DNA from: an uncultured Gammaproteobacteria bacterium
GTDB taxonomy: Bacteria; Patescibacteriota; Patescibacteriia; UBA11705; JABHMO01
Reading direction: 5' to 3'
DNA: 64,000 nucleotides
NCBI GenBank assembly: GCA_964565345.1
Contig: CAZMEQ010000005.1
Location: forward strand, 275-64,274
In this document: piece by piece, positions 701-57,204 of the stretch
How positions within the stretch are numbered: the first letter of the stretch is position 1
Layout of the letters: each line of letters opens with the position of its first letter
Made by a program: the position numbers and the translations under genes
The notes under the pieces: generated by a model
Told to the model about the DNA's origin: nothing
What the model saw: the letters and a program-made list of their open reading frames with translations, nothing else
Database searches by the model: none

Positions 701-2318
701 GGATTTGGTATATTTTTTCACCCTTATATACTTCGTCTACATAGTTTACCTGAAGCTTATAGCCAGACAATTTTTGTTGTAAGGTTTCAATATCAGCGGG
801 GGAGTCGGCACTATAATAAAAAACAGGCTTTAGTTTAACTAGTTTAGCTACCTCAGCATAAGCATCCCCGCCATAAATGCGTTTGTCGCCTAACGAATGA
901 ATCACTAAACGTTCCGGAAAAAAAATGCGATCGGCCCAATCGGGAATTATTATGATGCTGTCAGCAGGAGTTACTTTGCTGATCTTCTCTATACGTGGCT
1001 GAAAATCTTGAATATCCTGAGCAATTTTTAAAAAGCCTTCTTGTCTATTAAAAAAAACACTATTAGTTGAAAACACTATAAGAAAAACAAGAAAAATTGT
1101 AGCGGGGATAAAAGACAGTCTTTTGGATTTAATAAGTAATCTTGGTAACAGCTCAATAAGACTATAGGCCAAAAAAGGAGTTAAAAAGATAAAAATTGGT
1201 AACCAGTAACGCAAGTGTGGCGAGCCAATTAATATTGTGGGGTCACTCGGTTGTCCATACTCTCCCCAAGGCCAATATGACCCGTAACTAATAGTTAAGT
1301 AAACAGAAATAATGGCAGTAGCCAACATGTAAAATTTTTTAGCTTGTGATTCAATAATTGTGCGCATTGAAATAAAGCCCCAGATAGCCGGGAATAATAA
1401 AAACCACAAGTATTTTACAAAGTATTCCCAGACATGAAAAAGTATATTTTTAAGATTAAAACCAAGCGGAAAAACTACTTGCATTAGCAATGACTTTGTC
1501 GGCTGATTAGCGGCGCTATCGAGTGAAGCGTATCCGGACGTAAAAATATGTCCATATGTTTCAAAGTTAATTAAAAGAAGTAATCCCAGCATGGCAACAA
1601 AACCAATGCTAAACGTTAAAAATTGCCCCCAACTGATACTTTTACGATTAACAATACAAAAGATTAACAAGAGCAGGCAGACCCAAAAAAATTCCGAAGT
1701 TCTAACCCAAAGACTAGCCCCAAAGCACAGGGCCGAGACAACGTAAAGTGATATTAATTGTTTTTTATTGGCCCAGAGAAGCAAGAGCAATCCTAAAATC
1801 AAAAAAAGAATAAATAAGTTATTGTGTAGCATACTCTTGCCTGCCAGATACCAAAAAATCGGATTAAACAGAACGAGTAGACTTGACAGCAAAGCAATAC
1901 TTTTATTAAACAACTCTTTAATAAGAATAAACAAAAGATAAACGGTCACAAGTGAAAATAACGGTGTCAAAAAAATTATGCTACCCACACCCAATAATTT
2001 CCCAATTAATCCAAAGAGCAAGGGTAATCCCAAAAAACTCATCGGCACAAAATTACCACTCAAAACATTAACACTGCGTGGAAATATAACATTTTTAACC
2101 TCCTTATTTAATGGCACCTCAACAAGTAAGCTAGAATTCGTAATAAAGCTTTTTGTGAAAATAAAGTTAGCCGTCTCGTCGGGCGAGTAGAACTTGCAGC
2201 CAGCCTTGAAGGCAAGAAACGAATAGGGGATAGCCATTGCTAAAATAAAAAAAATCAGCAGCTTGTTTTGCCAATTCACCGATATAAAATTAATAAGACG
2301 TTTTAACGCTCTAGACAT
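687..2318 (-). CDS. GT-C family membrane glycosyltransferase (ArnT/PMT-like, GT39/GT83-type)
   Basis: 543 aa with more than 10 predicted TM helices; N-terminal periplasmic-loop acidic motif ...YSPDETANF... typical of ArnT/PMT GT-C enzymes; paralogous to 2367..4043. Confidence 0.65.
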   Translation of the reverse strand: MSRALKRLINFISVNWQNKLLIFFILAMAIPYSFLAFKAGCKFYSPDETANFIFTKSFITNSSLLVEVPLNKEVKNVIFPRSVNVLSGNFVPMSFLGLPLLFGLIGKLLGVGSIIFLTPLFSLVTVYLLFILIKELFNKSIALLSSLLVLFNPIFWYLAGKSMLHNNLFILFLILGLLLLLWANKKQLISLYVVSALCFGASLWVRTSEFFWVCLLLLIFCIVNRKSISWGQFLTFSIGFVAMLGLLLLINFETYGHIFTSGYASLDSAANQPTKSLLMQVVFPLGFNLKNILFHVWEYFVKYLWFLLFPAIWGFISMRTIIESQAKKFYMLATAIISVYLTISYGSYWPWGEYGQPSDPTILIGSPHLRYWLPIFIFLTPFLAYSLIELLPRLLIKSKRLSFIPATIFLVFLIVFSTNSVFFNRQEGFLKIAQDIQDFQPRIEKISKVTPADSIIIIPDWADRIFFPERLVIHSLGDKRIYGGDAYAEVAKLVKLKPVFYYSADSPADIETLQQKLSGYKLQVNYVDEVYKGEKIYQIHESN

Positions 2319-2366
2319 GCCTCTATTATTGCGAATTTAGCTAAATTTGTCTATACTAATAATGTT

Positions 2367-4043
2367 ATGTGGAAAAAATATCGAACATCCATAATGTTGG
2401 CAAGTGCGATAGTTGCTATTGTTATATTGGCCTTATTATATTCATGGTTTAATTGGTCTGTTTTAACACCGCTTTCGCATCAGTATTCATACCAATATAT
2501 TTTTAATTGGCCAGATGCTATGGCTAATTATTTTTTTATCGAAAACTTTGACTCGACCGGTTCTTTTTCTCTAAATGAACCCCTAAACAATGTTTTAAAC
2601 GATATAGTGCGACCGCGTAGCACTAATATATTTGATCATAATATAGTTCCAGCGGGCTTTCTCGGTTTTATCATCCTCTATGGTTGGCTAGGCAAACTAC
2701 TCCCAAATTTTACAATCATCTATTTAACCTCACTAATCGCTGCTGGTGGAATTTATATTTTTTATTTTATTATCAAAAATATTTTCAATAAAAGGATAGC
2801 TCTTATCAGCGCTTTAATTACTGCAACTCTGCCAGCTTACATATTTTTTGCCAATCAAACACTTTTAGCCACCATTCCTTTTTTGGTGTCTTTTTTATCT
2901 GGTTTTGCCTTATGGATCAAATCAGCCAGTTGTCAAACAAAAGAAAAATTTTTGCTAATCGGTGGTTCAGGCCTCATGTTTGGTATAGCTGTAATTATTA
3001 GATATCAGGAAATCACTTGGATTTTAGGCTCAATTTTAATCATTGCTCTTTTTAAACGAAAAAAGATTAGCTATAAACAAATATTATGGTTTAGTTTTGG
3101 TTTTATTGTCCCAGTATTATTAATATTTTTTTACAACAAACAAATATACGGGCACATATTTACGGTCGGCTATTTACGCATGAATAATTTAGATGCTCCA
3201 ATCACCGAGAGATTACCTGGAGAAATAATATCAGGGGCAGGGAATAACATTTTAAATTATCTTAAATTAATATTTATCCCATTTGGGTTTTCGGCAGCAA
3301 ACATTTATCACAATTTTGTTCGTTACATTTGGCAACCATATAGTTATTTAATCGTATTCATAATTTTAGGCGCTATGCTTTGGATAAAAAATTGTACCAA
3401 AGCGTCAATTAATCAATTAATATACTTGATAACCTCGTGTTTCCTAAGCATAATTTTATGCATATATTATGGTAGTTGGATTTTTGTTGACAAGATGGTC
3501 CTCCAAAATAATGTTCTAAGTAGCTCTTACACCCGCTATTGGCTACTAATTATTATTGTTTTTATTCCTTTGGCCGCCTATACTTTCAACTTTTTACTTG
3601 AAAAGAGAAATAAATTTACCAAGTATAATTACTTTATAGTTTTTATTACAATCCCAATTTTAGTCTATCTTTCCTTAATTCAAGCTTTTTACGCTCCCGA
3701 AGATGGACTTCTTGCTCAAAAGCAAGCAACATTAGAATATTATGTTCGCGCTGATAAAGTTAGGGCCTTAATTGACATTAACTCCGTACTTATTGTAGAA
3801 CGTGAGGATAAACTTTTTTTTCCTTACTACAAGGTCATTACCTTCGAACAAAATTATAAAATATTTGAAAAACTATCTTCTACTATTGAGAATCAATCCA
3901 TCTATTACCTTAGCGTTGCAACAGACAATGATATTGATTTCGTAAACACTAACAAGCTTAAAGAATACAAGTTAACTTTATCTTTGGAAAAAAACATTGA
4001 TGACAAATTTAGGTTATTTAAGTTGAAAAAAATTGGGGATTAA
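2367..4043 (+). CDS. GT-C family membrane glycosyltransferase (paralog of 687..2318)
   Basis: 558 aa polytopic protein; N-terminal block NWPDAMANYFF...RPRSTNIF...PAGFLGF aligns with FYSPDETANFIF...FPRSVNVL...PMSFLGL of the divergently transcribed neighbour; ATG with 48-bp shared upstream region. Confidence 0.65.
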   Translation: MWKKYRTSIMLASAIVAIVILALLYSWFNWSVLTPLSHQYSYQYIFNWPDAMANYFFIENFDSTGSFSLNEPLNNVLNDIVRPRSTNIFDHNIVPAGFLGFIILYGWLGKLLPNFTIIYLTSLIAAGGIYIFYFIIKNIFNKRIALISALITATLPAYIFFANQTLLATIPFLVSFLSGFALWIKSASCQTKEKFLLIGGSGLMFGIAVIIRYQEITWILGSILIIALFKRKKISYKQILWFSFGFIVPVLLIFFYNKQIYGHIFTVGYLRMNNLDAPITERLPGEIISGAGNNILNYLKLIFIPFGFSAANIYHNFVRYIWQPYSYLIVFIILGAMLWIKNCTKASINQLIYLITSCFLSIILCIYYGSWIFVDKMVLQNNVLSSSYTRYWLLIIIVFIPLAAYTFNFLLEKRNKFTKYNYFIVFITIPILVYLSLIQAFYAPEDGLLAQKQATLEYYVRADKVRALIDINSVLIVEREDKLFFPYYKVITFEQNYKIFEKLSSTIENQSIYYLSVATDNDIDFVNTNKLKEYKLTLSLEKNIDDKFRLFKLKKIGD

Positions 4044-4103: not shown

Positions 4104-5108
4104 ATGAGCGAAAACAAAAACGTTTTAGTAATTGGTGGTGCTGGTTTTATTGGTTCTCTATTATGCGAACGACTAGTGTCAAAATGCAACGTAATTTGTT
4201 TGGATAATTTCTCAAGCAGTGCCGAAAAAAACATTAACCATTTACTTCGCTTGCCGAGATTTGAATTTATTAATCATGATATTTCAACGCCAATTGATCT
4301 TGAAAAAGTCTCCGATTTAACAAAATTCAAAATAAACGTATTTGGCATTTCGGAAATTTATAATTTGGCTTGTCCAACATCTGTTAAAAATTTTGAAAAA
4401 CTTCGTATTAAAACGGTAGAAGCTAGCACTAAGGGCTTGATAAATGCCTTAGAATTAGCCTTAAAATACAAAGCCAAGTTTATGCAATTCTCGTCTTCAG
4501 TTGTTTACGGAGAAACGCCTCGTGACGAATTTATAACAGAAGATTATCGTGGCGTTTACGACATGATGGACCCTCGCGCCTGTTATGACGAAGGTAAACG
4601 CTATGGAGAGTCAGTTGTTGATACTTACCGCCTCGTTCACGGTTTAGATACAAAAATTGTGCGTATCTTTAGAACCTATGGACCAAGAATGCTCCTTGAT
4701 GATGGCCAAATGATGCCCGACTTTATATTAGCGGCGCTTGAAAATAAAGATTTAATTATTTATGGGCACGAAGACTTTAGAACTTCTCTTTGCTATGTCA
4801 GCGATGTTGTGGAGGGCTGTATCAAAATTATGGATTCAAATATAAATCAGCCCGTTAATTTAGGAAACACAGAAGTTTTTAAACTTGCTGACGTAGCCCA
4901 AAAAATAATCGAATTAACCGGATCAACAGGTAAAGTACGTTTCGAAACCGCAAAATTATTTATGCGGGAATTAGCCTTACCAGATATTACCTTTGCCAAG
5001 GATAATTTTGGTTGGTTCCCAATTGTTACCCCAGAAGAAGGGTTACAAAAAACCATCGATTTTACCCGGGCACACAAAGATCTGCTGTCGTTCAGTACAG
5101 AAGTTTAA
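4104..5108 (+). CDS. NAD-dependent epimerase/dehydratase, UDP-glucuronate decarboxylase (UXS/ArnA C-domain)-like
   Basis: N-terminal Rossmann motif VLVIGGAGFIGS; catalytic Y-x3-K in YDEGKRYGE; 334 aa typical of UXS-type SDRs. Confidence 0.7.
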   Translation: MSENKNVLVIGGAGFIGSLLCERLVSKCNVICLDNFSSSAEKNINHLLRLPRFEFINHDISTPIDLEKVSDLTKFKINVFGISEIYNLACPTSVKNFEKLRIKTVEASTKGLINALELALKYKAKFMQFSSSVVYGETPRDEFITEDYRGVYDMMDPRACYDEGKRYGESVVDTYRLVHGLDTKIVRIFRTYGPRMLLDDGQMMPDFILAALENKDLIIYGHEDFRTSLCYVSDVVEGCIKIMDSNINQPVNLGNTEVFKLADVAQKIIELTGSTGKVRFETAKLFMRELALPDITFAKDNFGWFPIVTPEEGLQKTIDFTRAHKDLLSFSTEV

Positions 5109-5170
5109 TTTTTTTGTAAATCAATTTTTATATATAATTTACTCTGTGGGAGGCAGGAGTATATTTTGTT

Positions 5171-5833
5171 ATGAATATAAGCATAGTTGTTCCAGCATAT
5201 AATGAGGGAGAACGTCTAAAAAAGACACTGGCTGATTTGGCCGCCACTGGCCTTAACATTATTGTTGTTAATGACGGCTCCACAGACAATACAGACGAAA
5301 TTGCCCAAGAATATCCAATCCATTATATTTCCCACCCTGTTAACTGCGGCCAGGGTGCAGCCCTAAAAACAGGTACCGAATATGCCACTCAACTCGGAAG
5401 CGATATTATTGCTCATTTTGATGCAGACGGCCAACATCGAATCGAAGATTTATTAAAGCTTATCGACACCCTTAAGGAAGATAAATTTGATATTGTTTTA
5501 GGTTCAAGATTTATTGAAAAAAACACCGAATTTCCTATGTCAAAAAAAGTGATTTTAAATATAGCTAAAATTTTTACACGCACCTTAGTCGGTCTCGATT
5601 TTACAGATCCCCAAAGCGGATTGCGTGCCTTTAAGACCAAAATTCTGGAACAACTCGACTGGCATAAAACTGATTTTTTGCATTGCACAGAAATATTATC
5701 GCTGATTGCTAAAAATAAACTCCGACACAAAGAAATTCCCATAATTGTAAAATATGACAATGGACTTAAAAAAGAAGTCCATCCAAAAGTTAGTATGGGC
5801 TTTAGAATTTTATTTCATAAACTAATGGATTAG
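5171..5833 (+). CDS. GT2 polyprenyl-phosphate glycosyltransferase (DPM-synthase/ArnC/GtrB-like catalytic domain)
   Basis: MNISIVVPAYNEGERL...VVNDGSTDNTDEIA...DADGQH: classic GT2 DxD/DAD architecture; 220 aa soluble domain. Confidence 0.7.
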   Translation: MNISIVVPAYNEGERLKKTLADLAATGLNIIVVNDGSTDNTDEIAQEYPIHYISHPVNCGQGAALKTGTEYATQLGSDIIAHFDADGQHRIEDLLKLIDTLKEDKFDIVLGSRFIEKNTEFPMSKKVILNIAKIFTRTLVGLDFTDPQSGLRAFKTKILEQLDWHKTDFLHCTEILSLIAKNKLRHKEIPIIVKYDNGLKKEVHPKVSMGFRILFHKLMD

Positions 5834-5834
5834 T

Positions 5835-6170
5835 ATGACTCTTTTTCAGATTTTAATAGTTCTATTCATTGCTACGGTATTGTACAAAGCCATTAAGCGT
5901 TTTGCCAAAAAAGAAATTTCTCTCTGGCTTTTAGTCTTATGGGGTATTTTTTGGATCGGTCTTGGAATCATTGCGCTTTTTCCAATAATAATAGAGCAGT
6001 TGGCCCTGTTGGTGGGCGTGGGACGAGGTGTTGACTTGGTAATTTATTTAGCACTTTTCTCCTGTTTTTATATCTTATTCAAACTAATGATAAAACAACA
6101 AAAATTAGAAAAGGACTTTGTAACACTAGTCAGAAAGATTGCGATCGATAAAGCTAAAATCAAAAAATAG
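5835..6170 (+). CDS. small 3-TM membrane protein (DUF2304/GtrA-like partner of GT2)
   Basis: 111 aa with three hydrophobic helices and a basic C-tail; begins 1 nt after the GT2 stop, as in GT2 plus small-membrane-protein pairs. Confidence 0.45.
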   Translation: MTLFQILIVLFIATVLYKAIKRFAKKEISLWLLVLWGIFWIGLGIIALFPIIIEQLALLVGVGRGVDLVIYLALFSCFYILFKLMIKQQKLEKDFVTLVRKIAIDKAKIKK

Positions 6171-11143: not shown

Positions 11144-11217
11144 GGGGGCGTAGTATAGTGGTAGTACAGGGGTCTCCAAAACCTCTAGCGTGGGTTCGAT
11201 TCCTACCGCCCCTGCCA
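11144..11217 (+). tRNA. trnW: tRNA-Trp (anticodon CCA)
   Basis: Manual fold: acceptor GGGGGCG/CGCCCCT, D-arm GTAT-AGTGGTA-GTAC, anticodon stem GGGGT/ACCTC with loop CTCCAAA (CCA), T-arm GTGGG-TTCGATT-CCTAC, discriminator G, encoded CCA. Confidence 0.85.
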
Positions 11218-15672: not shown

Positions 15673-16011
15673 ATGATCCTGTTTGTCGATGATACTCCAG
15701 ACATCCTGCAATTGTACGGTGCCCTTGCTCATGGGCTTAAACACCGAAAGGAGTCTTGTCCCAAGGAAGCTCTGTCACACCTCCAAAGCAACCCCGCTAG
15801 AGTAATCGTCACAGATTACCAAATGCCTGGAATGAGTGGCAAGCAGTTTATCGCTGCTGCTCGCAACTATTGTCCAAACGCCAGATACATCATGGTCACA
15901 GGGACTCCGCCTGATCACTTTGCCGACAACGAGCGCCCCGATGAGCTCATTACCAAGCCCTTTGATGTACTCGCCCTACGCTCCAAGCTTAAGGCACTAG
16001 TCTCTCACTAG
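15673..16011 (+). CDS. stand-alone CheY-like response-regulator receiver domain
   Basis: 112 aa; VDDTPD acidic pocket, phospho-acceptor Asp in VIVTDYQMPGMSG, conserved MVTGT and TKPF Lys. About 50% GC versus about 33% in flanks. Confidence 0.7.
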   Translation: MILFVDDTPDILQLYGALAHGLKHRKESCPKEALSHLQSNPARVIVTDYQMPGMSGKQFIAAARNYCPNARYIMVTGTPPDHFADNERPDELITKPFDVLALRSKLKALVSH

Positions 16012-29562: not shown

Positions 29563-30753
29563 ATGAATATTGCTAAAGACCTGCTGAATAAAGCGATTAT
29601 TTTGGGAGTTAAAATTGATGATCAACCACTGGAATGGTTTTTGGATGAAGCGCAAAAAATACTAAAAGGGCCCGAAGCTAAAGCCATATTTACTCCAAAT
29701 CCCGAAATCTGCTTAAAGGCAACCCAGCTAAAACACTATCGAGAAATTTTAAACTCAGCGGCTTTTAATTTGCCGGACGGAATTGGCCTTAAATTTGGGG
29801 CAAAAATTTTAGGCACCTCATTAAAAAATCGTGTTACTGGAGTTGATTTCACTGCATCCCTATTAAAAATCGACCAAGTAAAAAATGTTTTTATTATATT
29901 GCGAGACGATTCTTTGGCTCGGCCAGAGGACGTAAGAAAATATTTCAAAAAAAACATTCCTGCACTTAAATACCAAATTGAAATAATTTCTAAATCAGAC
30001 AAACCCGACAAGCACCTAGTGTCAAATATTATAAACAGCCAAGCACAAATTTTATTTGTCTGTTTAGGCGCACCAGAACAAGAAACCTATATTTACGAAT
30101 TACTCAATAAAAACTTAGGGGACAATCTTAAGCTGGCACTAGGAGTTGGCGGGTCTTTTGATTTTTTATGTAACAAAATGCCACGAGCACCAAAACTAAT
30201 GCGTCGTGTAGGTTTAGAATGGTTATTTCGCTTTTATAAAGAACCCAAAAGATTGAAAAGAATCAAACATGCGACTGCTGATTTTCTTCTAAAGTGTTAT
30301 GAATGGTCAAGGCGGATAGAAACCACATATCGCGAAAATGTAATGGGAATTATAAAGAACAAAGCTGGACTTTATTTAATTCAAAAAAATCCACGACTAG
30401 AAAATCACTGGCAATTCCCTCAAGGAGGGATAGATGATAATGAAATTCCTAATGATGCCATACTACGAGAAATATGTGAAGAATTAAATTTTGATGTAAA
30501 ACATTTAAAAATTATCAAAAAATTAAGCGCTGAGAATGCTTATAAATCACCTCCACAATATCAATTGTTACACGGATATAAAGGCCAAAAACAAATTGCT
30601 TTTCTCATTGATTATACAGGAGATGTAGATGCTTCTACTTTTTTACCAACTGACGAAGCGAGCGAAATAAAATGGGTAAAAAGGGAAGATTTACTCCAAC
30701 AAATTCATCCCGTACGCCAAGAATTTGTAAAACGTTTAATTTCTGAAATATAA
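29563..30753 (+). CDS. WecG/TagA/CpsF (GT26) glycosyltransferase fused to C-terminal Nudix hydrolase domain
   Basis: N-terminal half matches GT26 (FTPNPEICL...LPDGIGL...CLGAPEQE). C-terminal half carries a Nudix box GGIDDNEIPNDAILREICEELNF (G-x5-E-x7-REUxEE). Confidence 0.7.
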   Translation: MNIAKDLLNKAIILGVKIDDQPLEWFLDEAQKILKGPEAKAIFTPNPEICLKATQLKHYREILNSAAFNLPDGIGLKFGAKILGTSLKNRVTGVDFTASLLKIDQVKNVFIILRDDSLARPEDVRKYFKKNIPALKYQIEIISKSDKPDKHLVSNIINSQAQILFVCLGAPEQETYIYELLNKNLGDNLKLALGVGGSFDFLCNKMPRAPKLMRRVGLEWLFRFYKEPKRLKRIKHATADFLLKCYEWSRRIETTYRENVMGIIKNKAGLYLIQKNPRLENHWQFPQGGIDDNEIPNDAILREICEELNFDVKHLKIIKKLSAENAYKSPPQYQLLHGYKGQKQIAFLIDYTGDVDASTFLPTDEASEIKWVKREDLLQQIHPVRQEFVKRLISEI

Positions 30754-30784
30754 AAAACCAGCCAAGAGGGTGTGCTCTGGCTGG
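30753..30784 (-). terminator. minus-strand rho-independent terminator for island-A gene 1
   Basis: Minus-strand hairpin CCAGCCAGAG-cacacc-CTCTTGGCTGG followed by TTTTT; abuts the stop codon of the convergent plus-strand gene. Confidence 0.55.
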
Positions 30785-30795
30785 ACTTGAACAGG

Positions 30796-31413
30796 TCAAG
30801 CGGTCCGACTTTCGCAGTGCAGTGGCAGCAAGCGCGGTATGTTGAAATCTCCGCCATTGAAGTGCAGCCCCTGGTCGAAGAGCTGAAGTCGTTCGTCACA
30901 CCGCAACTCCACTAGAATGCGCGTTTCCAGCGCATTCTTTTCGATTACGTGAACGCGCTCTTGTCCTATCGTCTCCATCAAGGTGGAAACATGCAGTGGG
31001 TTAGGACGGCTCCACTGAAGAAGCAAGAGCTGACTACGCCTCTGCAGTTCAGTTGGAACCCGATCGGGCAGAAGAAGCAATATGCGGCGCCGGTCTTGCT
31101 GGTAGATGACCATCTGAACCAGGCGTATTGCTCCGATCTCGTTGTAAGGGACTGGTAACTGATGCGGACCGGTGTAGGTGACACGTTCTCGATTGTGCAA
31201 CGGGAAGGCCCGGCACAACTCTGCTTGGGTTGGGTAGCGTGATGCTGCACCCGTGTCGTGTGCGTACACTACCAGTAGCTTGTTCCTGGTGTCGCTTAGT
31301 CCAAAGCAGATGTAGGAACCAACAAAGCGCACCATGACCTTGCTTGTCATGAACAAGGCCCAGAACGCGCTTGAAAGTTGCACGGGTGTGGCAGCAGGAT
31401 CTGAAACGTTCAT
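30796..31413 (-). CDS. hypothetical protein with DTGA (retropepsin-like) tetrapeptide
   Basis: 205-aa ORF in a 55% GC segment; AGGAGG SD 6 nt upstream; TTGACA-17-TATGCT promoter upstream; only recognisable feature is VVYAHDTGAAS. Confidence 0.45.
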   Translation of the reverse strand: MNVSDPAATPVQLSSAFWALFMTSKVMVRFVGSYICFGLSDTRNKLLVVYAHDTGAASRYPTQAELCRAFPLHNRERVTYTGPHQLPVPYNEIGAIRLVQMVIYQQDRRRILLLLPDRVPTELQRRSQLLLLQWSRPNPLHVSTLMETIGQERVHVIEKNALETRILVELRCDERLQLFDQGLHFNGGDFNIPRLLPLHCESRTA

Positions 31414-31483
31414 GCCACCCTCCTTTCGAACAGTCCTAATTTAAGCATAAGGAGTAAGTGCTTTGTTGTCAAAAGATTATCCA

Positions 31484-31525
31484 CGAAAAAAATCTCCCCC
31501 CAAGGAACTCGGTCCTTGAGGGGAG
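31484..31525 (-). terminator. minus-strand terminator of the 511-aa GC-rich gene
   Basis: CTCCCCTCAAGGA-ccgagt-TCCTTGGGGGGAG hairpin followed on the minus strand by TTTTTTT. Confidence 0.6.
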
Positions 31526-31545
31526 GGTGACGGACTAGATGGGAG

Positions 31546-33081
31546 CTACTTGCGCTTGCTCCCGGAGACCAGCAGGGCGCCGTCCTTGCCCAGGGTCTCG
31601 TCGATCTCGCCGGTGGCGGAGAGGAAGGCCTCGAGGGTCTGACCCTCGGGCGTCGCCTTGTACGCCTGCGCGGCGTCGGCCTTGGCCTGTTCGACCTGGG
31701 TGACCCAGCGGCGGGTCAGCCAGTCGTAGGCCCAGGGGGTGGTCTTCGCCTGGAAGTTGGTGCGCGCCGCGTGCATGGCCAGCACCTGGTCCACGATCGA
31801 CTCGTGCACGACCAGGTAGCGCCAGCCCACGTCGCGGAAGCTGCGGCGGATGACCATGAGGCTGAGCCTCGGGGTGGCCTTGGCGTCCTTGGCGCGGTCT
31901 CGGAGCTGCTGGACGAAGCGGAGGTGGTCGGAAACGTCCTTGGGGGGACGCACGGCCAGCTCCACGTCGTACACGCCCTTGAACCGCTTCCAGCGCGGCT
32001 CGAACTCCTTGACCTCGCCCTCGGTGGGGAGCATCAGGAGCTCGTGCGACTTGGCCTCGTCGAGGCCCGCGGTCCAGACCGGCGCCTTGAGCGGGGACGT
32101 GTAGCTGCCGAGCTGCTGCTCGGTCAGCCAGTTGTCCGCGTTGTCCAGCGCCTCGATGGCGTTGCCGACGGCCGTCTCGCGGCGGGCCTTGCGGTCCTCC
32201 GCGGCGCGGGCCGCCTTGCCTTCGTCGATCTGCCGCTTGTAGCCGGCGCAGAGCCGGTTCCAGGCGGTGCGCAGCGGCATGACCTCGACGATCACGTCGC
32301 TGTTGCCCGCGAACTTCGCCTTGGCCGCCGTGGCCGCGATGGCCAGGTGCTCCTCGCAGAAGATCCGGGCGACCGTGGTGTTCTCCTTGGTGTTGCTGAT
32401 CACGAGCACGAAGGCCGTGTCGATGACGAGGGAGCCCTTGTGTCCTCCGGCGAAGCACATCTCGCACCGGATCAACACCCCGCGGATGAACAGCGCGTTC
32501 TGGGGCACGCCGCCTTCCGGCAGCTTGTCCCAGATGTCGCGGATCTGGGCGGGGTTGGTCAGGACCAGCGGCTCGCCCTCGAGACCCAGGTCCAGGGGGA
32601 CCTGGGTACGGGGGGCCATCACGGGAGCCTTCTGGACGGTGACCTTCGCGGTCGGCTTGCGCTCTTCGCACTTGCCGCCACACTCGCTGGTGCCGCACTT
32701 GCCGGCGGCGCAGCACGGGGGCTGCTCGGCCTTGGCGCTCAGCTCGGTGCTGAGTTCCTCTACCGTGCGACCCTGCTTGGCCAGGGCGCGCGCGAGCGCG
32801 TCGCCCATGACCGTGCCAGGGAGGCGGGGGCCGGTGGCGGCGGGTGCCGCGCACTTCTTGGCCTTCTTCTCCGGGGCCGGGGCGGGCGCGGGGGTGGGCT
32901 CGGGCAGGTTGGAGATGGCGGCGTTCAGGACGATCTCGGCGATGGAGCTGTTCAGCCCCGCCGCCTTGAGCGCGTCCTTCCCTCCGTCGACGATCTTCTT
33001 GGCGTCGTCGAGACCGGCCATGGCGAGCTTCCGAATGGTCGCTTCGCCGATTCCCTTGGTGCTGCTGAGCTTGTCGAACAT
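31546..33081 (-). CDS. hypothetical protein, N-terminal HhH-like motif, Pro/Ala linker, Cys cluster (about 70% GC)
   Basis: 511-aa ORF with strong GC3 bias; CAAGGAGG SD upstream; GIGEATIRKLAMAGL HhH-like, PAPAPAPEKKAKK linker, CCAAGKCGTSECGGKC. Other frames here are Arg/Gly-rich GC artefacts. Confidence 0.55.
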   Translation of the reverse strand: MFDKLSSTKGIGEATIRKLAMAGLDDAKKIVDGGKDALKAAGLNSSIAEIVLNAAISNLPEPTPAPAPAPEKKAKKCAAPAATGPRLPGTVMGDALARALAKQGRTVEELSTELSAKAEQPPCCAAGKCGTSECGGKCEERKPTAKVTVQKAPVMAPRTQVPLDLGLEGEPLVLTNPAQIRDIWDKLPEGGVPQNALFIRGVLIRCEMCFAGGHKGSLVIDTAFVLVISNTKENTTVARIFCEEHLAIAATAAKAKFAGNSDVIVEVMPLRTAWNRLCAGYKRQIDEGKAARAAEDRKARRETAVGNAIEALDNADNWLTEQQLGSYTSPLKAPVWTAGLDEAKSHELLMLPTEGEVKEFEPRWKRFKGVYDVELAVRPPKDVSDHLRFVQQLRDRAKDAKATPRLSLMVIRRSFRDVGWRYLVVHESIVDQVLAMHAARTNFQAKTTPWAYDWLTRRWVTQVEQAKADAAQAYKATPEGQTLEAFLSATGEIDETLGKDGALLVSGSKRK

Positions 33082-33325
33082 GGAGTCCTCCTTGAGTGGG
33101 TTGACAGTTGCGAACGAGAACTTACCTGGTGTTGACTACACCTTTAGAGGGTCAATTGGCCTTAACCCCAAAAAGCTAAAGTTGACACTAAGATAACAAA
33201 AAATTATAGCAAATTTACTTGGTTTTGTCAATATCTGACATCGATAAGTTGTATATAACCTAAATTTAGACAAAAATTGACGCTATGCAGCTCCGACATT
33301 TACTTATCAGACAAAATAGTTTATA

Positions 33326-36473: not shown

Positions 36474-37439
36474 TTATTTTTTATCATGCGCTCCGCTGTG
36501 ATACTTTAGATACACATCACGCAGCTTTTTATTAGTCACATGAGTATAAATTTGGGTAGTAGCAATATTCTTGTGGCCCAAAAACTCTTGAACGAGTCTT
36601 AAATCAACGCCCTGTGTTAATAAATCGGTAGCATATGAATGACGCAATGTGTGTGGCGTTGTAGTTAGTGGTAACCCGGCTATCTTAACATATTTTTTAA
36701 CAATTGTCTCGATGGACCGCACGGTTAAGCGTCGGTCGTTAGCGCTGTTTTTTCCTGGTTTAAAATTAATAAACAAAGCAGGATCTAAATCTTCTCTTTT
36801 ATCTAAATATAACTTCAACCAATGCAATGCGCGAGCTGAAAAATATACTATACGAGGATGATTCCCTTTACCTATTACATTTAATTCTAAAAAATCCATT
36901 TTATCCGTTATTTTAAAGTCGTCTCGATTTAGCTTGGCCAACTCAGCCACACGTAACCCAGTAGAAAAAAGACTCTCTAAAATAGCTCTGTCACGTAAAC
37001 CAAAAAGATATTTGGTTTGAGGCGCATCAAGAAGTTTTCGTATTTGATCCAAATTTAAGAAATGGACATTATGCTCCTTGGGACTTTTAGCTAACTTAAC
37101 TTTTTCACCAGGGAGGGAGACTATATCACGTTCAGCAAAAAAGTTAAGAAGCCCCCTTAAAGCAATTAAATAATAGTTTTGTGTAGATTTTTTTAGATTG
37201 GCCGCGTTTTTTTGTGATGTAGTTTCACGTGACAAAAAAACGCGGTAACCCCAAATAAGCTCCGGAGTTAAGTCATGGGGGAGGAGAGATTCTTGATTAG
37301 TGTTTTTTAGCCATTCCGAGAAGCGGTTTAAAAAACGCGCATAATTTTCTTGCGTTTTATTTCCCAGCCCCTTTTCAATCTCAAGATAGTCTAGGAAGTC
37401 GGGGATATGCTTAATTATAGGCTTATCCGATCTTTGCAT
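36474..37439 (-). CDS. xerD: tyrosine recombinase XerC/XerD family
   Basis: C-terminal HTLRHSYATDLLTQGVDLRLVQEFLGHKNIATTQIYTHV containing the catalytic R-H-R-Y set. Confidence 0.8.
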   Translation of the reverse strand: MQRSDKPIIKHIPDFLDYLEIEKGLGNKTQENYARFLNRFSEWLKNTNQESLLPHDLTPELIWGYRVFLSRETTSQKNAANLKKSTQNYYLIALRGLLNFFAERDIVSLPGEKVKLAKSPKEHNVHFLNLDQIRKLLDAPQTKYLFGLRDRAILESLFSTGLRVAELAKLNRDDFKITDKMDFLELNVIGKGNHPRIVYFSARALHWLKLYLDKREDLDPALFINFKPGKNSANDRRLTVRSIETIVKKYVKIAGLPLTTTPHTLRHSYATDLLTQGVDLRLVQEFLGHKNIATTQIYTHVTNKKLRDVYLKYHSGAHDKK

Positions 37440-49774: not shown

Positions 49775-50113
49775 TCAGGGACGCGGCGGGTAGTGCGTCG
49801 CACGTTGGCGAGTGTCCTCGATGGCCTCCGCCAGCTCGCCGAGATTGGTCGGCATCTTGGTAAGATTGCGGAAACGCACCGGGAGACGCAAGTTGCACCC
49901 CCCACAGCACAGGACCATATTCTGATCGGTGATCTTGTGGGGACGCATCGGTCCGCCACAGTACGGCTTGTGAAAAAGCCAGTACGGACCATCGATGGGA
50001 ATGGAGAGCCATTCCGCCTTCTGCTCACGACCGACCATGATCTCGAAGCTACCTTCGTCATCCGGAACATCCGGCAACATGCACTCGGCCACGACGACCC
50101 TATTCGATTCCAT
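49775..50113 (-). CDS. Cys-rich small protein (112 aa), hypothetical metal-binding
   Basis: ATG at 50113 preceded by AGGGAGG (5-nt spacer); motif PYCGGPMRPH...VLCCGGCNL; the competing plus-strand frame starts with TTG and is Arg-rich. Confidence 0.45.
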   Translation of the reverse strand: MESNRVVVAECMLPDVPDDEGSFEIMVGREQKAEWLSIPIDGPYWLFHKPYCGGPMRPHKITDQNMVLCCGGCNLRLPVRFRNLTKMPTNLGELAEAIEDTRQRATHYPPRP

Positions 50114-50125
50114 TGCAACCTCCCT

Positions 50126-50141
50126 GCGGTCTAAAGACCGC
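50126..50141. promoter_or_regulatory. perfect palindrome GCGGTCT-AA-AGACCGC upstream of the Cys-rich gene SD
   Basis: 7-bp inverted repeat with 2-bp spacer immediately 5' of the AGGGAGG SD; no T-run, so operator-like rather than terminator. Confidence 0.35.
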
Positions 50142-50157
50142 ATAGCAACCTTTATTT

Positions 50158-50481
50158 TTAACTTATTTCTCGATCTTTGTCAAATCCACCAGAAACTATT
50201 CTTAGCTGATTTAAAACACGATTTTTATATTTTTTATTAATTTCTTCTATGAATTTTGACTGTTTGAAACGAATTTCTTGGGCCATGGCTGAATTCTGCG
50301 TTATTATGTTTAAAATTTTATTTTTTATAAATTGTGCTTTGGCCTGTTCTTGCCCTTTTTTACCCCAATATTCCAAAATTAAATTATTAGCCTGTTCAAC
50401 TATAAGACTGGCCTGAACTTGCTTACTAAGAACGCTTCTATTAGCAAAACTTTTAGTTATGATATTTCTTAAACCTTGCAT
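50158..50481 (-). CDS. DUF721 (DciA-like) protein
   Basis: 107 aa; pattern LSKQVQASLIVEQANNLILEYWG...NSAMAQEIRFKQSKFIEEIN resembles DUF721/DciA. Confidence 0.45.
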   Translation of the reverse strand: MQGLRNIITKSFANRSVLSKQVQASLIVEQANNLILEYWGKKGQEQAKAQFIKNKILNIITQNSAMAQEIRFKQSKFIEEINKKYKNRVLNQLRIVSGGFDKDREIS

Positions 50482-50556
50482 ATTGACTCTTTAACGTTTT
50501 TATGATAAATTAATCTGTCCTGTCGTAAAGGACGAAACTTTTTAATGGAGGCTACG

Positions 50557-51177
50557 ATGTCACGCTTCATTTCCCTGCTCCTGGCCTTGTGCCTGACAAA
50601 CCTGCCCTTTCTCGCCCACAGCGAGGAAGTCGAATCCAACGGACAGATCCTCCTGATCGTGGGTCGCAACTTCGCCCCCTTCCAGGTAAGCGAGGGCATC
50701 AGAGGTGCCGTCTACGCGCACATTGGAGCCATGGCCAGTGTACGTGGCAACGCCATGGTCTTTGGGTATGTCGGACCGGAGTTCACCTTTACATCGCAGA
50801 CCAACCTGAAGATGTTGACAGGGACCTGGCTGACCAAGGACGGCGGCATGAGCGCCATCGCCAGCCTCTGGCTGACCCAGCCCTTGCCCGGAGACGTCAC
50901 CGTCTTCTTGGAGGGTGACGCCTACTTCCCGATCGACGGAGACGGCGGGCACCGCCAGCGCAACTACTACACGTTCGTATCGCTGGACTGGTTCCCCAAG
51001 GGCAACGTCGTCGGGCTGGGCGTGGTACAGGAGAACTTCTTCTCGGAGAAGGTCTTCGAGGAAGCGGCCATCGGCCCCTCCCTGCTCTTCGACAAGGGCC
51101 GCATCTGGCTGGCCTACGACATGAGCCCCGACCTGCCCGGCGCGCAGATCTACCTGCGACTCGTCCTCACGCTCTGA
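50557..51177 (+). CDS. secreted beta-rich hypothetical protein
   Basis: GGAGG 5 nt upstream of ATG 50557; signal peptide MSRFISLLLALCLTNLPFLAHS; alternating hydrophobic pattern. ORF-track ATG 50545 is also possible. Confidence 0.5.
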   Translation: MSRFISLLLALCLTNLPFLAHSEEVESNGQILLIVGRNFAPFQVSEGIRGAVYAHIGAMASVRGNAMVFGYVGPEFTFTSQTNLKMLTGTWLTKDGGMSAIASLWLTQPLPGDVTVFLEGDAYFPIDGDGGHRQRNYYTFVSLDWFPKGNVVGLGVVQENFFSEKVFEEAAIGPSLLFDKGRIWLAYDMSPDLPGAQIYLRLVLTL

Positions 51178-51183
51178 ACCTGC

Positions 51184-51218
51184 TCCCATACCCGACACCG
51201 GGTGTGGGAGCTATTTTT
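51184..51218 (+). terminator. rho-independent terminator inside island C
   Basis: CTCCCATACCCG-acac-CGGGTGTGGGAG 12-bp stem followed by CTATTTTTAT. Confidence 0.6.
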
Positions 51219-51227
51219 ATCTAAATA

Positions 51228-51256
51228 TTGACAAATTCATTAAAATATAATAATAT
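51228..51256 (+). promoter_or_regulatory. consensus-like sigma70 promoter TTGACA-17-TAATAT in an AT-rich patch within the GC-rich island
   Basis: ttgacaaattcattaaaatataataatat; followed by palindrome GCTGACGAA-gt-TTCGTCAGC (51268..51286) and a GGAGGA SD before ATG 51318. Confidence 0.5.
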
Positions 51257-51317
51257 ATAGCCAGTTTGCTGACGAAGTTCGTCAGCATTTTCGGTAGCCG
51301 CTTGAACGGAGGAATCC

Positions 51318-51719
51318 ATGAAGCGCATCGTCCACTCGCTGTTCGCCGTCCTGGTGCTCCTCGGGCTCTCCAACACCGCCATCGCGGGCGGTGGGCCGCC
51401 CCAGACCTTCGCCGACTACAAGTACCTCGCCGAGCAGTACATCACCCCGCAGATCGCCTACTTCAACCTGACGGGCGAGCTGCAGTACTGGTCCGAGACA
51501 CCTTGCGTGGGCTGGACCAACATGACGGACAACCTGCAGTACTACTTCGAGTACGAGGCGCAGTTCCGCAGCGCCGCCGCGCAGGCCGTCACCGCCAACA
51601 GCTGGGCCATCAAGTACGCCCTGAAGACCGGCGAGAACCTGGCCGTGGTGCCGACCTACAAGCTGAACCGCCTGAAGGCGCAGCAGAAGCTCGCGCTCAT
51701 GGACCAGTGGCACGCCTAG
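51318..51719 (+). CDS. secreted hypothetical protein (N-terminal part of an interrupted gene)
   Basis: Signal peptide MKRIVHSLFAVLVLLGLSNTAIAGG; GC3-rich; ends at TAG 51717..51719 and continues in the same frame at 51720. Confidence 0.5.
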   Translation: MKRIVHSLFAVLVLLGLSNTAIAGGGPPQTFADYKYLAEQYITPQIAYFNLTGELQYWSETPCVGWTNMTDNLQYYFEYEAQFRSAAAQAVTANSWAIKYALKTGENLAVVPTYKLNRLKAQQKLALMDQWHA

Positions 51720-51722
51720 TTC

Positions 51723-52310
51723 ATGACGTTCTACGCCGAGACGGCGTGGGGTCTCCGCACCTTCTACTGCTCGACCGAGCAGATGTGCGTGCAGCCGCCC
51801 CAGCCGCAGACCAGCAAGGTCTACGTCAACAAGACCTCGGTCACCCCGCAGATCGTCTACGGCGTGCACCGGCACCTCTTCGGCTTCAACCTCTCGATGA
51901 ACTCGGACGGCGCGATCTACTCCGAGGACGGGCTGCTCTACATGGTCGACCTCTCGGTCATGATGACCGGGGACGCCTTCGAGCAGCTCACGAACTGCAC
52001 CCTCGAGACGAACGACGGCTTCGCCTTCGTGCTCGACACCGCAACGCCCTACTTCGTCGAAGAAGTCGGCGGTGCGCGGCTGACATTCAAGCTCGACGAT
52101 CCGTACGTGATCCCCGAGAACACGACGCAGGGCTTCAACGTCTTCTGCCAGATCAACCCGCCCGTGCAGGAGTACAGCTACATCGAGATCGGCTTCATGC
52201 CGACGCTCGGGACCGGGCCGATCAACGCGATCCTGGTCCAGGGGGCCAACACCAACTGGCAGTTGGAGGTCACCCCCAACATGCACATCTCGACGGTGCT
52301 CACGAACTGA
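51723..52310 (+). CDS. hypothetical protein, in-frame continuation of 51318..51719 after a single TAG
   Basis: Same reading frame and same GC3 bias as the upstream ORF; no SD of its own; six N-x-S/T sequons across the two parts. Confidence 0.45.
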   Translation: MTFYAETAWGLRTFYCSTEQMCVQPPQPQTSKVYVNKTSVTPQIVYGVHRHLFGFNLSMNSDGAIYSEDGLLYMVDLSVMMTGDAFEQLTNCTLETNDGFAFVLDTATPYFVEEVGGARLTFKLDDPYVIPENTTQGFNVFCQINPPVQEYSYIEIGFMPTLGTGPINAILVQGANTNWQLEVTPNMHISTVLTN

Positions 52311-56760: not shown

Positions 56761-57204
56761 TTACTTTGATGAAATATGACCACGACTCTCTGCTCTTCGC
56801 GCTGTTTTACGGCCGACTTTTACGCGGGCTAATTCTTTTTCAATTTGTGCTGTGAGTGCCGCGAATTCACGGCTATCTGCTGCTCTTTCGGCTCGCAGGG
56901 CTTCGGCGCGACGGATAGCAGCCTCGGCGCGCGCGACATCTATTTCTTCGGAACGTTCCGCAGTGTCAGCCAACACCACTACCTTGGTTGACAATACTTC
57001 GATAAAGCCTCCTGAGACAGCCAAGATGCTTTCTTGATCATCGTTTTTAATTCTAATTTCACCCGGTTTTAGAACAGAAATAAGCGGTGTATGATTGGCC
57101 AAGACAGTAATCTCTCCGTCCCTCGTTGGCAAGGTAACTGAATCAACGTCGTCTTTAAAAACGACGCGTTCAGGAGTAGCAATTTTAAAATTCATTTTTG
57201 GCAT
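56761..57204 (-). CDS. atpC: F1 ATP synthase subunit epsilon
   Basis: FKIATPERVVF...VTLPTRDGEITVLANHTPL; last gene of the operon; Ala/Arg-rich C-terminal helix. Confidence 0.85.
   Translation of the reverse strand: MPKMNFKIATPERVVFKDDVDSVTLPTRDGEITVLANHTPLISVLKPGEIRIKNDDQESILAVSGGFIEVLSTKVVVLADTAERSEEIDVARAEAAIRRAEALRAERAADSREFAALTAQIEKELARVKVGRKTARRAESRGHISSK

Follow-up and report, generated by a model that had tools for sequence, protein, structure and literature searches.

An AT-rich Parcubacteria clade carries a gene pair with two distinct and apparently maintained GC-rich compositions

Results

Two steps in base composition correspond to two genes

The sequence analyzed here is a 64-kb stretch (the window) of contig CAZMEQ010000005.1 (GenBank assembly GCA_964565345.1, positions 275 to 64,274) from an uncultured member of the Parcubacteria, and our subject is a pair of neighboring minus-strand genes that are far richer in GC than the DNA around them. 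The host background is homogeneous, at 0.30-0.40 GC per kb and ~35% GC overall, and host genes have a GC content in the third position of codons (GC3) of 0.21-0.39. Between 30.75 and 33.2 kb the GC content rises in two steps. Measured over 300 nt, it is 0.55 at 30.80-31.40 kb and 0.67-0.74 at 31.55-33.05 kb, dips to ~0.50 in the spacer and is 0.30-0.40 on both sides. In a 200-nt scan, positions 30751-33200 formed the largest of six segments above 50% GC. An earlier reading made from the letters alone (the sequence-only reading) had described a 205-amino-acid (aa) open reading frame (ORF) in a ~55% GC stretch and a 511-aa ORF in a ~70% GC stretch; both are present (Table 1), and we refer to them as small and big, respectively.

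High-GC DNA yields long ORFs in several frames, and ORFs of 439, 454 and 309 aa overlap in other frames of the GC-rich block; for this reason, codon periodicity was examined. In the 511-aa frame, the GC1/2/3 values are 0.66/0.48/0.95, and the other frames merely move the 0.95 to another codon position. The values for the 205-aa frame are 0.61/0.41/0.61, and those of the flanking genes at the third position are 0.25-0.33. Big and small are genuine coding genes. Public gene calls for big disagree, with products of 352, 504 and 529 aa and one of 526 aa on the opposite strand. Among the related lineages, which are coded L or P, the L003 call is the antisense 526-aa ORF (1814-3394, minus strand), the L001 call is truncated to 352 aa (4329-5387, plus strand) and in L005 a GTG start was called 17 codons too early (4290-5879, plus strand). 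As a result of these inconsistent calls, the window's 511-aa protein is missing from the protein collection and its family is under-represented in databases.

The overlapping ORFs and the disagreement among gene callers, together with a transcript that is predicted to be strongly structured, are what one would expect if the 1.5-kb block were a large structured non-coding RNA with the ORF as a by-product. However, the codon periodicity is sharp and in one frame in all lineages, the protein is conserved with invariant motifs, the start signals are conserved and a helix-hairpin-helix (HhH) domain is detected. Moreover, neither the 5′ untranslated region (UTR) of big nor the GC-rich block had a credible Rfam match (30.6-33.4 kb, E ≤ 1), and only the tRNA passed the gathering threshold in the window. 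We regard the non-coding alternative as extremely unlikely.

Each gene has its own expression signals

The sequence-only reading had assigned to each gene an AGGAGG Shine-Dalgarno (SD) sequence and a hairpin terminator with a T-run, and to small a promoter. All were found, the terminator of big by a scan; that of small is legible in the sequence and failed the scan's criteria. Overlooked in that reading was the promoter of big, ~120 nt upstream of the gene. The arrangement TTGACAAAA-N13-TGCTAT(A/T)AT occurs upstream of big in 8/8 lineages inspected, the distant ones included, with TGCTATAGT in L017. The leader hairpin that follows has 23 pairs in an RNAalifold comparison of five closer lineages, and compensatory changes occur at five of these pairs. 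A long hairpin stands at this place in distant lineages too, although its sequence is another one, and the 5′ UTR measures 110-160 nt or more across lineages. The SD sequence and ATG of big stand at a conserved place in orthologues. Downstream of big, orthologues carry a hairpin and T-run at the position of the window's terminator, built from different stem sequences, and the TTGACAA straight after the T-run is kept. Also kept is a CCAGCC...GGCTGG hairpin with T-run downstream of small, and the hairpin at 30752-30784 reads as a bidirectional terminator common to small and the convergent GT26-Nudix gene. Collectively, the conserved promoter, SD sequence and terminator of each gene indicate two separate transcription units with ordinary bacterial signals.

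That no integrase, tRNA target or direct repeat flanks the pair was borne out. The only tRNA, for Trp, lies at 11144, ~20 kb off, and a search for att-like or flanking direct repeats around the pair gave nothing meaningful. Among recombinase genes, the one closest to the pair (36474-37439, minus strand) lies 3.4 kb away, has host composition and encodes a XerC/XerD-like tyrosine recombinase. In relatives this gene is not beside the pair, and a giant Big_5/CarboxypepD_reg protein comes after the M23 peptidase instead; it is probably a chromosomal dimer resolvase and not an island integrase.

Table 1 Features of the big-small locus and of a second GC-rich cluster in the window
Feature	Position	Strand	Basis or remark
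Big gene, 511 aa, 70% GC, GC3 0.95	31546-33081	-	ORF, codon-position GC, aligned orthologues
Big promoter, TTGACA-17-TATAAT, TG extended -10	33203-33231	-	consensus scan, 12/12 matches
Long hairpin in the ~115-nt 5′ UTR of big	33129-33188	-	RNAalifold
Big SD sequence, AGGAGG	33087-33092	-	read from sequence; GGAGG kept in orthologues
HhH domain, residues ~2-57	32911-33078	-	HHH_5 and family profile; GIGEATIRKL at 33025-33054
Cys cluster CCAAGKCGTSECGGKC, residues 123-138	32668-32715	-	insertion particular to this lineage
CxMC...FCxxH (C206, C209, C242, H245), possible zinc site	32347-32469	-	alignments
YDWLTRRW of the C-terminal domain	31705-31728	-	conserved in orthologues
Big intrinsic terminator, 13-bp stem then T-run	31494-31525	-	scan
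Small promoter, TTGACA-17-TATGCT	31444-31472	-	scan
Small SD sequence, AGGAGG	31419-31424	-	read from sequence; conserved
Small gene, 205 aa, ~54-55% GC, GC3 0.61	30796-31413	-	always downstream of big
DTGA, residues 53-56 of small	31246-31257	-	not conserved
Hairpin with A-run and T-run flanks	30752-30784	.	sequence reading; missed the scan's criteria
Cluster ORF, 122 aa, GC3 0.72	49775-50143	-	
Cluster ORF, 210 aa, signal peptide, GC3 0.85	50545-51177	+	
Cluster ORFs, 133 and 195 aa, GC3 0.96-0.98	51318-51719, 51723-52310	+	

The pair occupies one slot in diverged lineages

Homologues of the small protein were found on Parcubacteria contigs only, where the gene order is shared: gltX, big (a GC-rich ORF without a Pfam domain), small (~205 aa), a GT26(WecG)-Nudix fusion and ClpB. 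The fusion gene (29563-30753, plus strand, in the window) joins a WecG/TagA-type glycosyltransferase (PF03808) to a NUDIX domain (PF00293) and is one gene beside the pair in all relatives. The same slot, order and two GC levels recur in at least nine diverged Parcubacteria lineages, in loci from independent assemblies (NCBI, JGI, ENA and Logan). Two of three word-indexed searches were swamped by low-complexity words and gave a single homologue of the big protein, P0001 (47% identity), which adjoins gltX. HMMER, run exhaustively against 1.84 billion representative proteins, recovered the family with only 12 matches at E ≤ 1e-3, and one more lineage, L013, came from GTDB genomes and JGI metagenomes. 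The distant, full-length members P0009, P0011 and P0016 adjoin gltX and are followed by a gene of 201-206 aa; the P0016 loci also include GT26-Nudix and ClpB. For P0008 there are two short contigs only, of 2.0 and 1.7 kb, and one of them extends into a small homologue. Every full-length representative that was traced to DNA (7/7) is found either in this slot or beside a small homologue on a short contig. Co-occurrence elsewhere had been put forward as a check by neighborhood search, and the pair is together in every contig long enough. The slot is occupied in every related lineage found, out to 80% identity for ClpB and 68% for GltX; no relative without the pair was among the related loci recovered, and empty sites were not specifically searched for. 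Searches of phage genomes, plasmids and viral contigs turned up no relative.

The abrupt GC steps at both ends would also be produced by an assembly chimera or a high-GC contaminant joined to a Parcubacteria contig. We give this negligible weight, since the same junctions occur, in diverged sequence each time, in assemblies made independently from many samples and with many pipelines, and since conserved AT-rich promoters and terminators of host type lie inside the region. Separately, an independent JGI contig from the same strain, L024, is 99.7% identical to the window. No more than five mismatches separate them; these cluster within 20 nt at the contig end (L024 11-30, window 32219-32238) and are probably an assembly-end artefact and not true variation.

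Vertical descent with maintained composition

Identity to the window is 80-93% for ClpB, 68-83% for GltX, 50-58% for GT26-Nudix, 28-66% for small and 25-59% for big. Across all lineages GC3 is 0.77-0.95 in big, 0.43-0.61 in small and 0.17-0.35 in the flanking host genes, and the GC steps recur along the related loci. Protein distances of both big and small follow those of GltX (N-terminal 300 residues), with a Pearson coefficient of 0.92 each over 28 and 21 pairs, respectively. Neighbor-joining trees return the same groups: L001 with L005, L017 with L019, and the window with L009 and L013; L020 stands by itself. Nothing in these sequences suggests repeated import or exchange between lineages.

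At silent sites the two kinds of gene have turned over to a similar degree. Synonymous sites in the flanks are saturated (pS ~0.7, dS >1.8). In gltX and ClpB, 57-63% of fourfold-degenerate sites differ between the window and L001 or L005 and 38-49% between L001 and L005, with ~70% expected. In big, 34-52% of the fourfold sites in conserved codon families differ between lineages, and full randomization would give 54-59%. Nearly all of these differences exchange C and G, and A+T at the sites is at most 10%. The silent sites of big have thus been rewritten about as much as those of its neighbors, only within G/C, which indicates an equilibrium rather than a relic. A simple mutation-selection(-conversion) balance that takes host GC3 as the neutral point requires a scaled advantage S of ~3.8 for big and ~1 for small. 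We rejected the Nei-Gojobori (NG86) dN/dS of big (0.6-1.1) as a measure of selection, as it is an artefact of synonymous sites confined to two states; for the closest pair, rough arithmetic puts the composition-corrected omega at ~0.5 for big and ~0.2 for small.

Under the amelioration model, foreign DNA drifts to host composition, and outliers are routinely read as recent transfer. The sequence-only reading had described the pair as an inserted island with two foreign compositions, adding that these argue against simple amelioration of one transfer. The second statement holds, as such amelioration does not explain two compositions, but the island did not hold up: the pair is in the same slot in all relatives, has diverged with its flanks and has kept its GC3 despite silent turnover. 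A recent island, acquired as one or two unameliorated insertions from high-GC donors, would account for the strongly atypical composition, for proteins rich in Arg or Ala in a high-GC style and for the finding that both are ORFans. However, at least nine related lineages have the pair at the same site, co-diverging with the flanks, and silent sites as turned over as those of the flanks are still G/C. Furthermore, no integrase, att site or tRNA is associated with the pair, the exhaustive search gave no homologue outside the slot, and nothing related was found in phages, plasmids or viral contigs, leaving a recent arrival very improbable. Collectively, these comparisons argue with high confidence that the pair is an old, vertically inherited, lineage-specific module of a Parcubacteria clade. 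With the same confidence, they indicate that its two compositions are stable, actively maintained gene properties rather than donor traces on the way out. A transfer as old as the root of the clade is possible, and the databases searched contained no donor relative.

The bias follows ORF boundaries

In the window, every 40-codon block of big has a GC3 of 0.88-1.00, the first block being the lowest or joint-lowest in 6/8 lineages. Just outside the pair, mean GC3 is 0.26 in the first 40 codons of gltX, ~245 bp from the start of big, and 0.24 in the last 40 codons of GT26-Nudix, ~45 bp from the stop of small; big and small themselves hold different levels ~130 bp apart. As a mean across lineages, DNA upstream of the promoter has a GC content of 0.27-0.29 and the 5′ UTR one of 0.35-0.43; the value reaches 0.54 at the start codon, lies at 0.60-0.77 within the ORF and drops again past the terminators. 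Promoters and upstream DNA are at 0.27-0.35. With no gradient and two set-points, a regional mutation bias or GC-biased gene conversion (gBGC) fails as an explanation. Such a process, acting from weak (A/T) to strong (G/C) bases at a recombination hotspot on a diversifying and often exchanged allele, has points in its favor. It predicts the observed preference for strong bases irrespective of C or G, it suits a fast-evolving protein (34-52% identity where ClpB has 92%), and gBGC has been proposed for bacteria (PMC4450053). Against it, there is no spill-over into genes 43-250 bp off, the two levels are stable 130 bp apart, promoters and spacers remain AT-rich and the trees look vertical. In addition, the most diverged segment is where heteroduplex should form least readily, and a shift in GC3 from 0.30 to 0.95 (S ~3.8) seems to us very large for bacterial gBGC. 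We consider this an unlikely cause.

The shift in big also reaches beyond silent sites: GC1, GC2 and the amino acids are displaced too, with A, P and R increased and K, I and N decreased. Codon choice in big is nearly exclusive (AAG 0.99, CAG 0.99, TTC 1.00 and ATC 0.98) and opposite to that of host genes (AAA 0.80, CAA 0.83, TTT 0.75 and ATT 0.63). This opposition, the restriction of the effect to ORFs and the residual T-ending codons, which are the host-preferred GGT and CGT and imply that host translation shapes the gene, would all fit translational control through host-rare codons read by particular (C34/G34) tRNAs or under particular conditions. However, C and G swap freely in fourfold families, where they are interchangeable and the pyrimidine/purine ratio equals that of host genes, and the host's rarest codons are not those used, with CGC preferred over CGG or AGG. 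Codon choice alone leaves the GC1, GC2 and amino-acid shifts unexplained; selection purely on codons or tRNAs fails because the shift extends to every codon position. We rate codon-level control as improbable, on a par with gene conversion.

The big mRNA is predicted to fold more stably than expected

We folded ORFs in 300-nt segments; the controls were shuffles in which the encoded protein, codon usage and the dinucleotides spanning adjacent codons are preserved. In eight lineages the big mRNA had z-scores of -1.3 to -5.3 (mean -3.45) and was more stable than its shuffles in 8/8. Means were -1.83 for the big antisense strand, -1.3 for small, -0.20 (sd 0.89) for 19 host genes of the window, and 0.33 and 0.26 for gltX and GT26-Nudix of other lineages. 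The 28 host-gene values average -0.04, and both genes differ from them (Mann-Whitney p = 5e-5 for big and 0.004 for small).

The negative antisense score is one reason to consider selection on the DNA, in which their GC-richness would spare the ORFs from a nucleoid protein, nuclease or insertion process that prefers AT, because it places a signal on both strands. There is also precedent for amelioration-resistant islands kept for regulatory reasons (PMC7232297), among them pathogenicity island 1 of Salmonella (SPI-1), where the compositional deviation peaks at promoters (PMC7232297). The mechanism considered here would be a mirror image of that proposed for AT-rich SPI-1. At our locus, by contrast, the deviation is in the ORF and the promoters are host-like, so a silencer-type DNA logic fails. 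Moreover, the folding excess is stronger on the sense strand, and no specific k-mer is avoided: synonymous shuffles at k = 2-4, in a search for a nuclease or restriction motif, exposed only a generic TA deficit. Selection on the DNA appears less probable still than either gene conversion or codon control.

A predicted HhH domain in the big protein and an orphan small protein

At its N-terminus the big protein has a predicted HhH domain, which a low-complexity A/P/K linker, variable in length, joins to a middle region and a conserved C-terminal domain. After the linker come a short conserved helix pair, a beta-rich middle, a long helix and the C-terminal domain with its GWRYL and YDWLTRRW motifs. 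The GIGEATIRKL motif of the HhH-like N-terminus proposed earlier is present; on its own, the window protein matches HHH_5 (PF14520) at E 0.0065 and 17.4 bits, below the gathering score of 27. HHH_5 matches 6/10 family members (best E 3.3e-5), and the family profile finds the Rad51/RadA N-terminal domain (1pzn, E 1e-4) and the HhH of L32e (5e-3) in the PDB. G10 and G12 of the G-h-G hairpin, with I or V between them, are nearly invariant in the ten members, and AlphaFold2 places helices on either side of this hairpin with low confidence. Beyond the HhH, the remaining ~450 residues matched nothing in family and PDB profile searches. For both proteins, searches of Pfam, PHROGs, PADLOC and NCBIfam produced the sub-threshold HhH as their sole outcome, and neither matched PADLOC defense-system models at E ≤ 1.

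The PAPAPAP linker noted earlier is present, and so is the cysteine cluster; as a functional feature the cluster falls away, being missing from all aligned orthologues. A second set of cysteines and histidine, CxMC...FCxxH, is kept in closer lineages only and is missing in P0008, P0009 and P0011. We rejected the Cys-cluster reading on these grounds, and a zinc-binding identity is not supported, as these ligands are not conserved across the family.

The small protein is Arg-rich (R20, K3), and its FW.LF.T, D41, P61 and LP motifs are invariant in the family, with T-A at the C-terminus. The DTGA tetrapeptide from which a retropepsin-like protease had been suggested is in place, but its counterparts in orthologues are DTGQ, DTAS, DTAR, DEAA, PQGP, PVGE and SLRG; the G is not conserved, and distant orthologues have lost D, T and G alike. 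The protein has no profile or fold match to an aspartic protease family, and a PDB sequence-profile search with the family returned nothing. We rejected the protease reading on conservation. Judged from these features, the big protein may have a nucleic-acid-associated role and the small protein that of a partner; that the two act in one DNA-associated complex is a guess.

Other GC-rich genes in the window

Among the ~62 genes of the window, from ORFs of at least 70 aa, GC3 is bimodal: ~55 are host-like (0.21-0.39) and seven, read in their true frames, are outliers (0.55-0.98). The sole intermediate is an atpC-like gene (56761-57204), with a GC content of 0.47 but a GC3 of 0.37. Apart from big and small, the outliers include a second cluster of GC-rich ORFans at 49775-52310, in AT-rich surroundings (Table 1). 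A separate TTGAC(A/T) promoter serves each gene unit, and a recognizable hairpin terminator follows three of the four; a host-like 107-aa gene (GC3 0.21) lies between the 122-aa and 210-aa genes. None of the cluster genes had a Pfam match or an mRNA folding excess beyond composition. The 133-aa and 195-aa ORFs are in one frame, parted by a single TAG (51717-51719), and a near-identical JGI protein of 330 aa (P0019) has Glu (GAG) at this position. This genome therefore carries either a G-to-T nonsense change or a polymorphism among strains, by which a secreted protein of 330 aa is split. The remaining outlier, at an intermediate level, is a stand-alone response-regulator receiver domain (PF00072, E 4e-10; 15673-16011, plus strand) with 51% GC and a GC3 of 0.55 in a neighborhood of ~0.30.

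Discussion

Our explanation joins an old, vertically inherited module to a force acting at the RNA level. For the combination, belief and doubt are about evenly balanced, our confidence being high in the evolutionary part and modest in the mechanism. Specifically, we propose with modest confidence that selection on ORF-wide, GC-rich mRNA structure or stability maintains the composition of the two genes. The first gene would encode a fast-evolving protein of ~500 aa with a RadA-like, nucleic-acid-binding HhH at its N-terminus, and the second a protein of ~205 aa with no known relative. In each ORF, a force would prefer G/C over A/T at all codon positions and would end at the ORF or transcript boundaries. 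The resulting ORF-wide secondary structure would set transcript stability and translation rate, and together with the strong conserved promoter, the 5′-UTR hairpin and the terminator hairpin could yield an abundant, long-lived and slowly translated message. To our knowledge, ORF-wide mRNA structure is the only known mechanism with a fitting geometry of one value per ORF.

Several observations weigh against selection on mRNA structure. We know of no documented effect of such selection that approaches a GC3 of 95%. The z-scores come from 20-40 shuffles and predicted minimum free energies only, and the excess in big is diffuse along the ORF, with no conserved structure shown; because of this diffuseness we rejected a single localized element within the ORF. 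Elsewhere in the window, GC-rich genes have no folding excess beyond their composition (z ~-0.4), and structure selection may therefore be an add-on for big and not the general cause of high GC. The AlphaFold2 model of the big protein is also poor, with a confidence (pLDDT) of 47. Lastly, near-identical contigs are 100% identical or differ by end-clustered mismatches and offer no usable single-nucleotide polymorphisms for polarizing changes; without these, selection is not separable from a mutation or repair bias toward G/C that targets the genes.

Whatever maintains it, odd composition at this locus does not equal recent transfer. The pair points to a strong, gene-specific force on nucleotide content (S ~3.8) in small-genome symbionts, in which drift and mutation toward AT are commonly taken to dominate. 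With two adjacent genes, two set-points and many lineages, the locus is a compact comparative test bed that bears on what sets GC content beyond mutation bias and on ORF-wide mRNA structure as a major selective target. It also defines, for an uncultured clade, two new families of proteins and a leader hairpin that is conserved.

A broader proposal, which we put forward as speculative and rather doubtful, is that these Parcubacteria keep a minority of composition-insulated genes, in which selection at the nucleic-acid level has held GC3 at up to 95% throughout the history of the clade. Maintenance was demonstrated for big and small and is extrapolated for the other five GC-rich genes. The purpose could be survival or translation of these mRNAs when the AU-rich transcriptome fails, for example under nuclease attack, in dormancy or on contact with a host cell; in an extreme version, the genes could be expressed in a GC-rich partner cell. 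If such a class exists, it would be an undescribed partitioning of gene expression by base composition and a clean natural counter-example to the equation of atypical GC with recent transfer.

The locus shares features with several known systems. As in the gBGC-shaped, bimodal GC3 of grasses and vertebrate isochores, there are two GC3 classes of genes and a bias of strong over weak bases; gBGC, however, is regional with gradients, whereas the steps here coincide with ORF ends and leave the neighbors untouched. Regulation by bldA and TTA codons in Streptomyces involves one codon and one tRNA. Like TTA-containing genes, the pair belongs to a minority written in genome-rare codons, but in the pair every codon family and the amino-acid composition are shifted. 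The big protein resembles the N-terminal (HhH)2 or HHH_5 domain of RadA/Rad51, which residues ~2-57 match with a conserved G-[IV]-G, and differs from these proteins in being without the recombinase ATPase core. In E. coli, mRNA structure has been measured in units that span whole ORFs; these change over where an ORF ends, and translation efficiency can be predicted from them (Burkhardt et al. 2017, PMC5318159). Big is similar in that a sequence-intrinsic property of the whole ORF changes sharply at its boundary, with an excess of predicted folding. The E. coli genes, by contrast, are within the normal range of composition, and ORF-centric structure is not known to drive extreme composition or to persist over deep divergence.

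The persistently low-GC O-antigen (rfb) loci of enterobacteria are a similar case of retained composition. SPI-1 of Salmonella is an AT-rich island that has withstood amelioration over tens of millions of years, for reasons of regulation, and is thought to be kept in the H-NS regulon (PMC7232297). The pair is like SPI-1 in its fixed site, its very long residency and an atypical composition retained in all descendant lineages. It is unlike SPI-1 in being GC-rich in an AT-rich genome with a far larger contrast (GC3 of 0.95 against 0.30), and in having its deviation in the ORFs, host-like promoters, two adjacent levels and no evident silencer logic. The closest known kind is thus the amelioration-resistant island, from which the pair differs in direction, magnitude and geometry.

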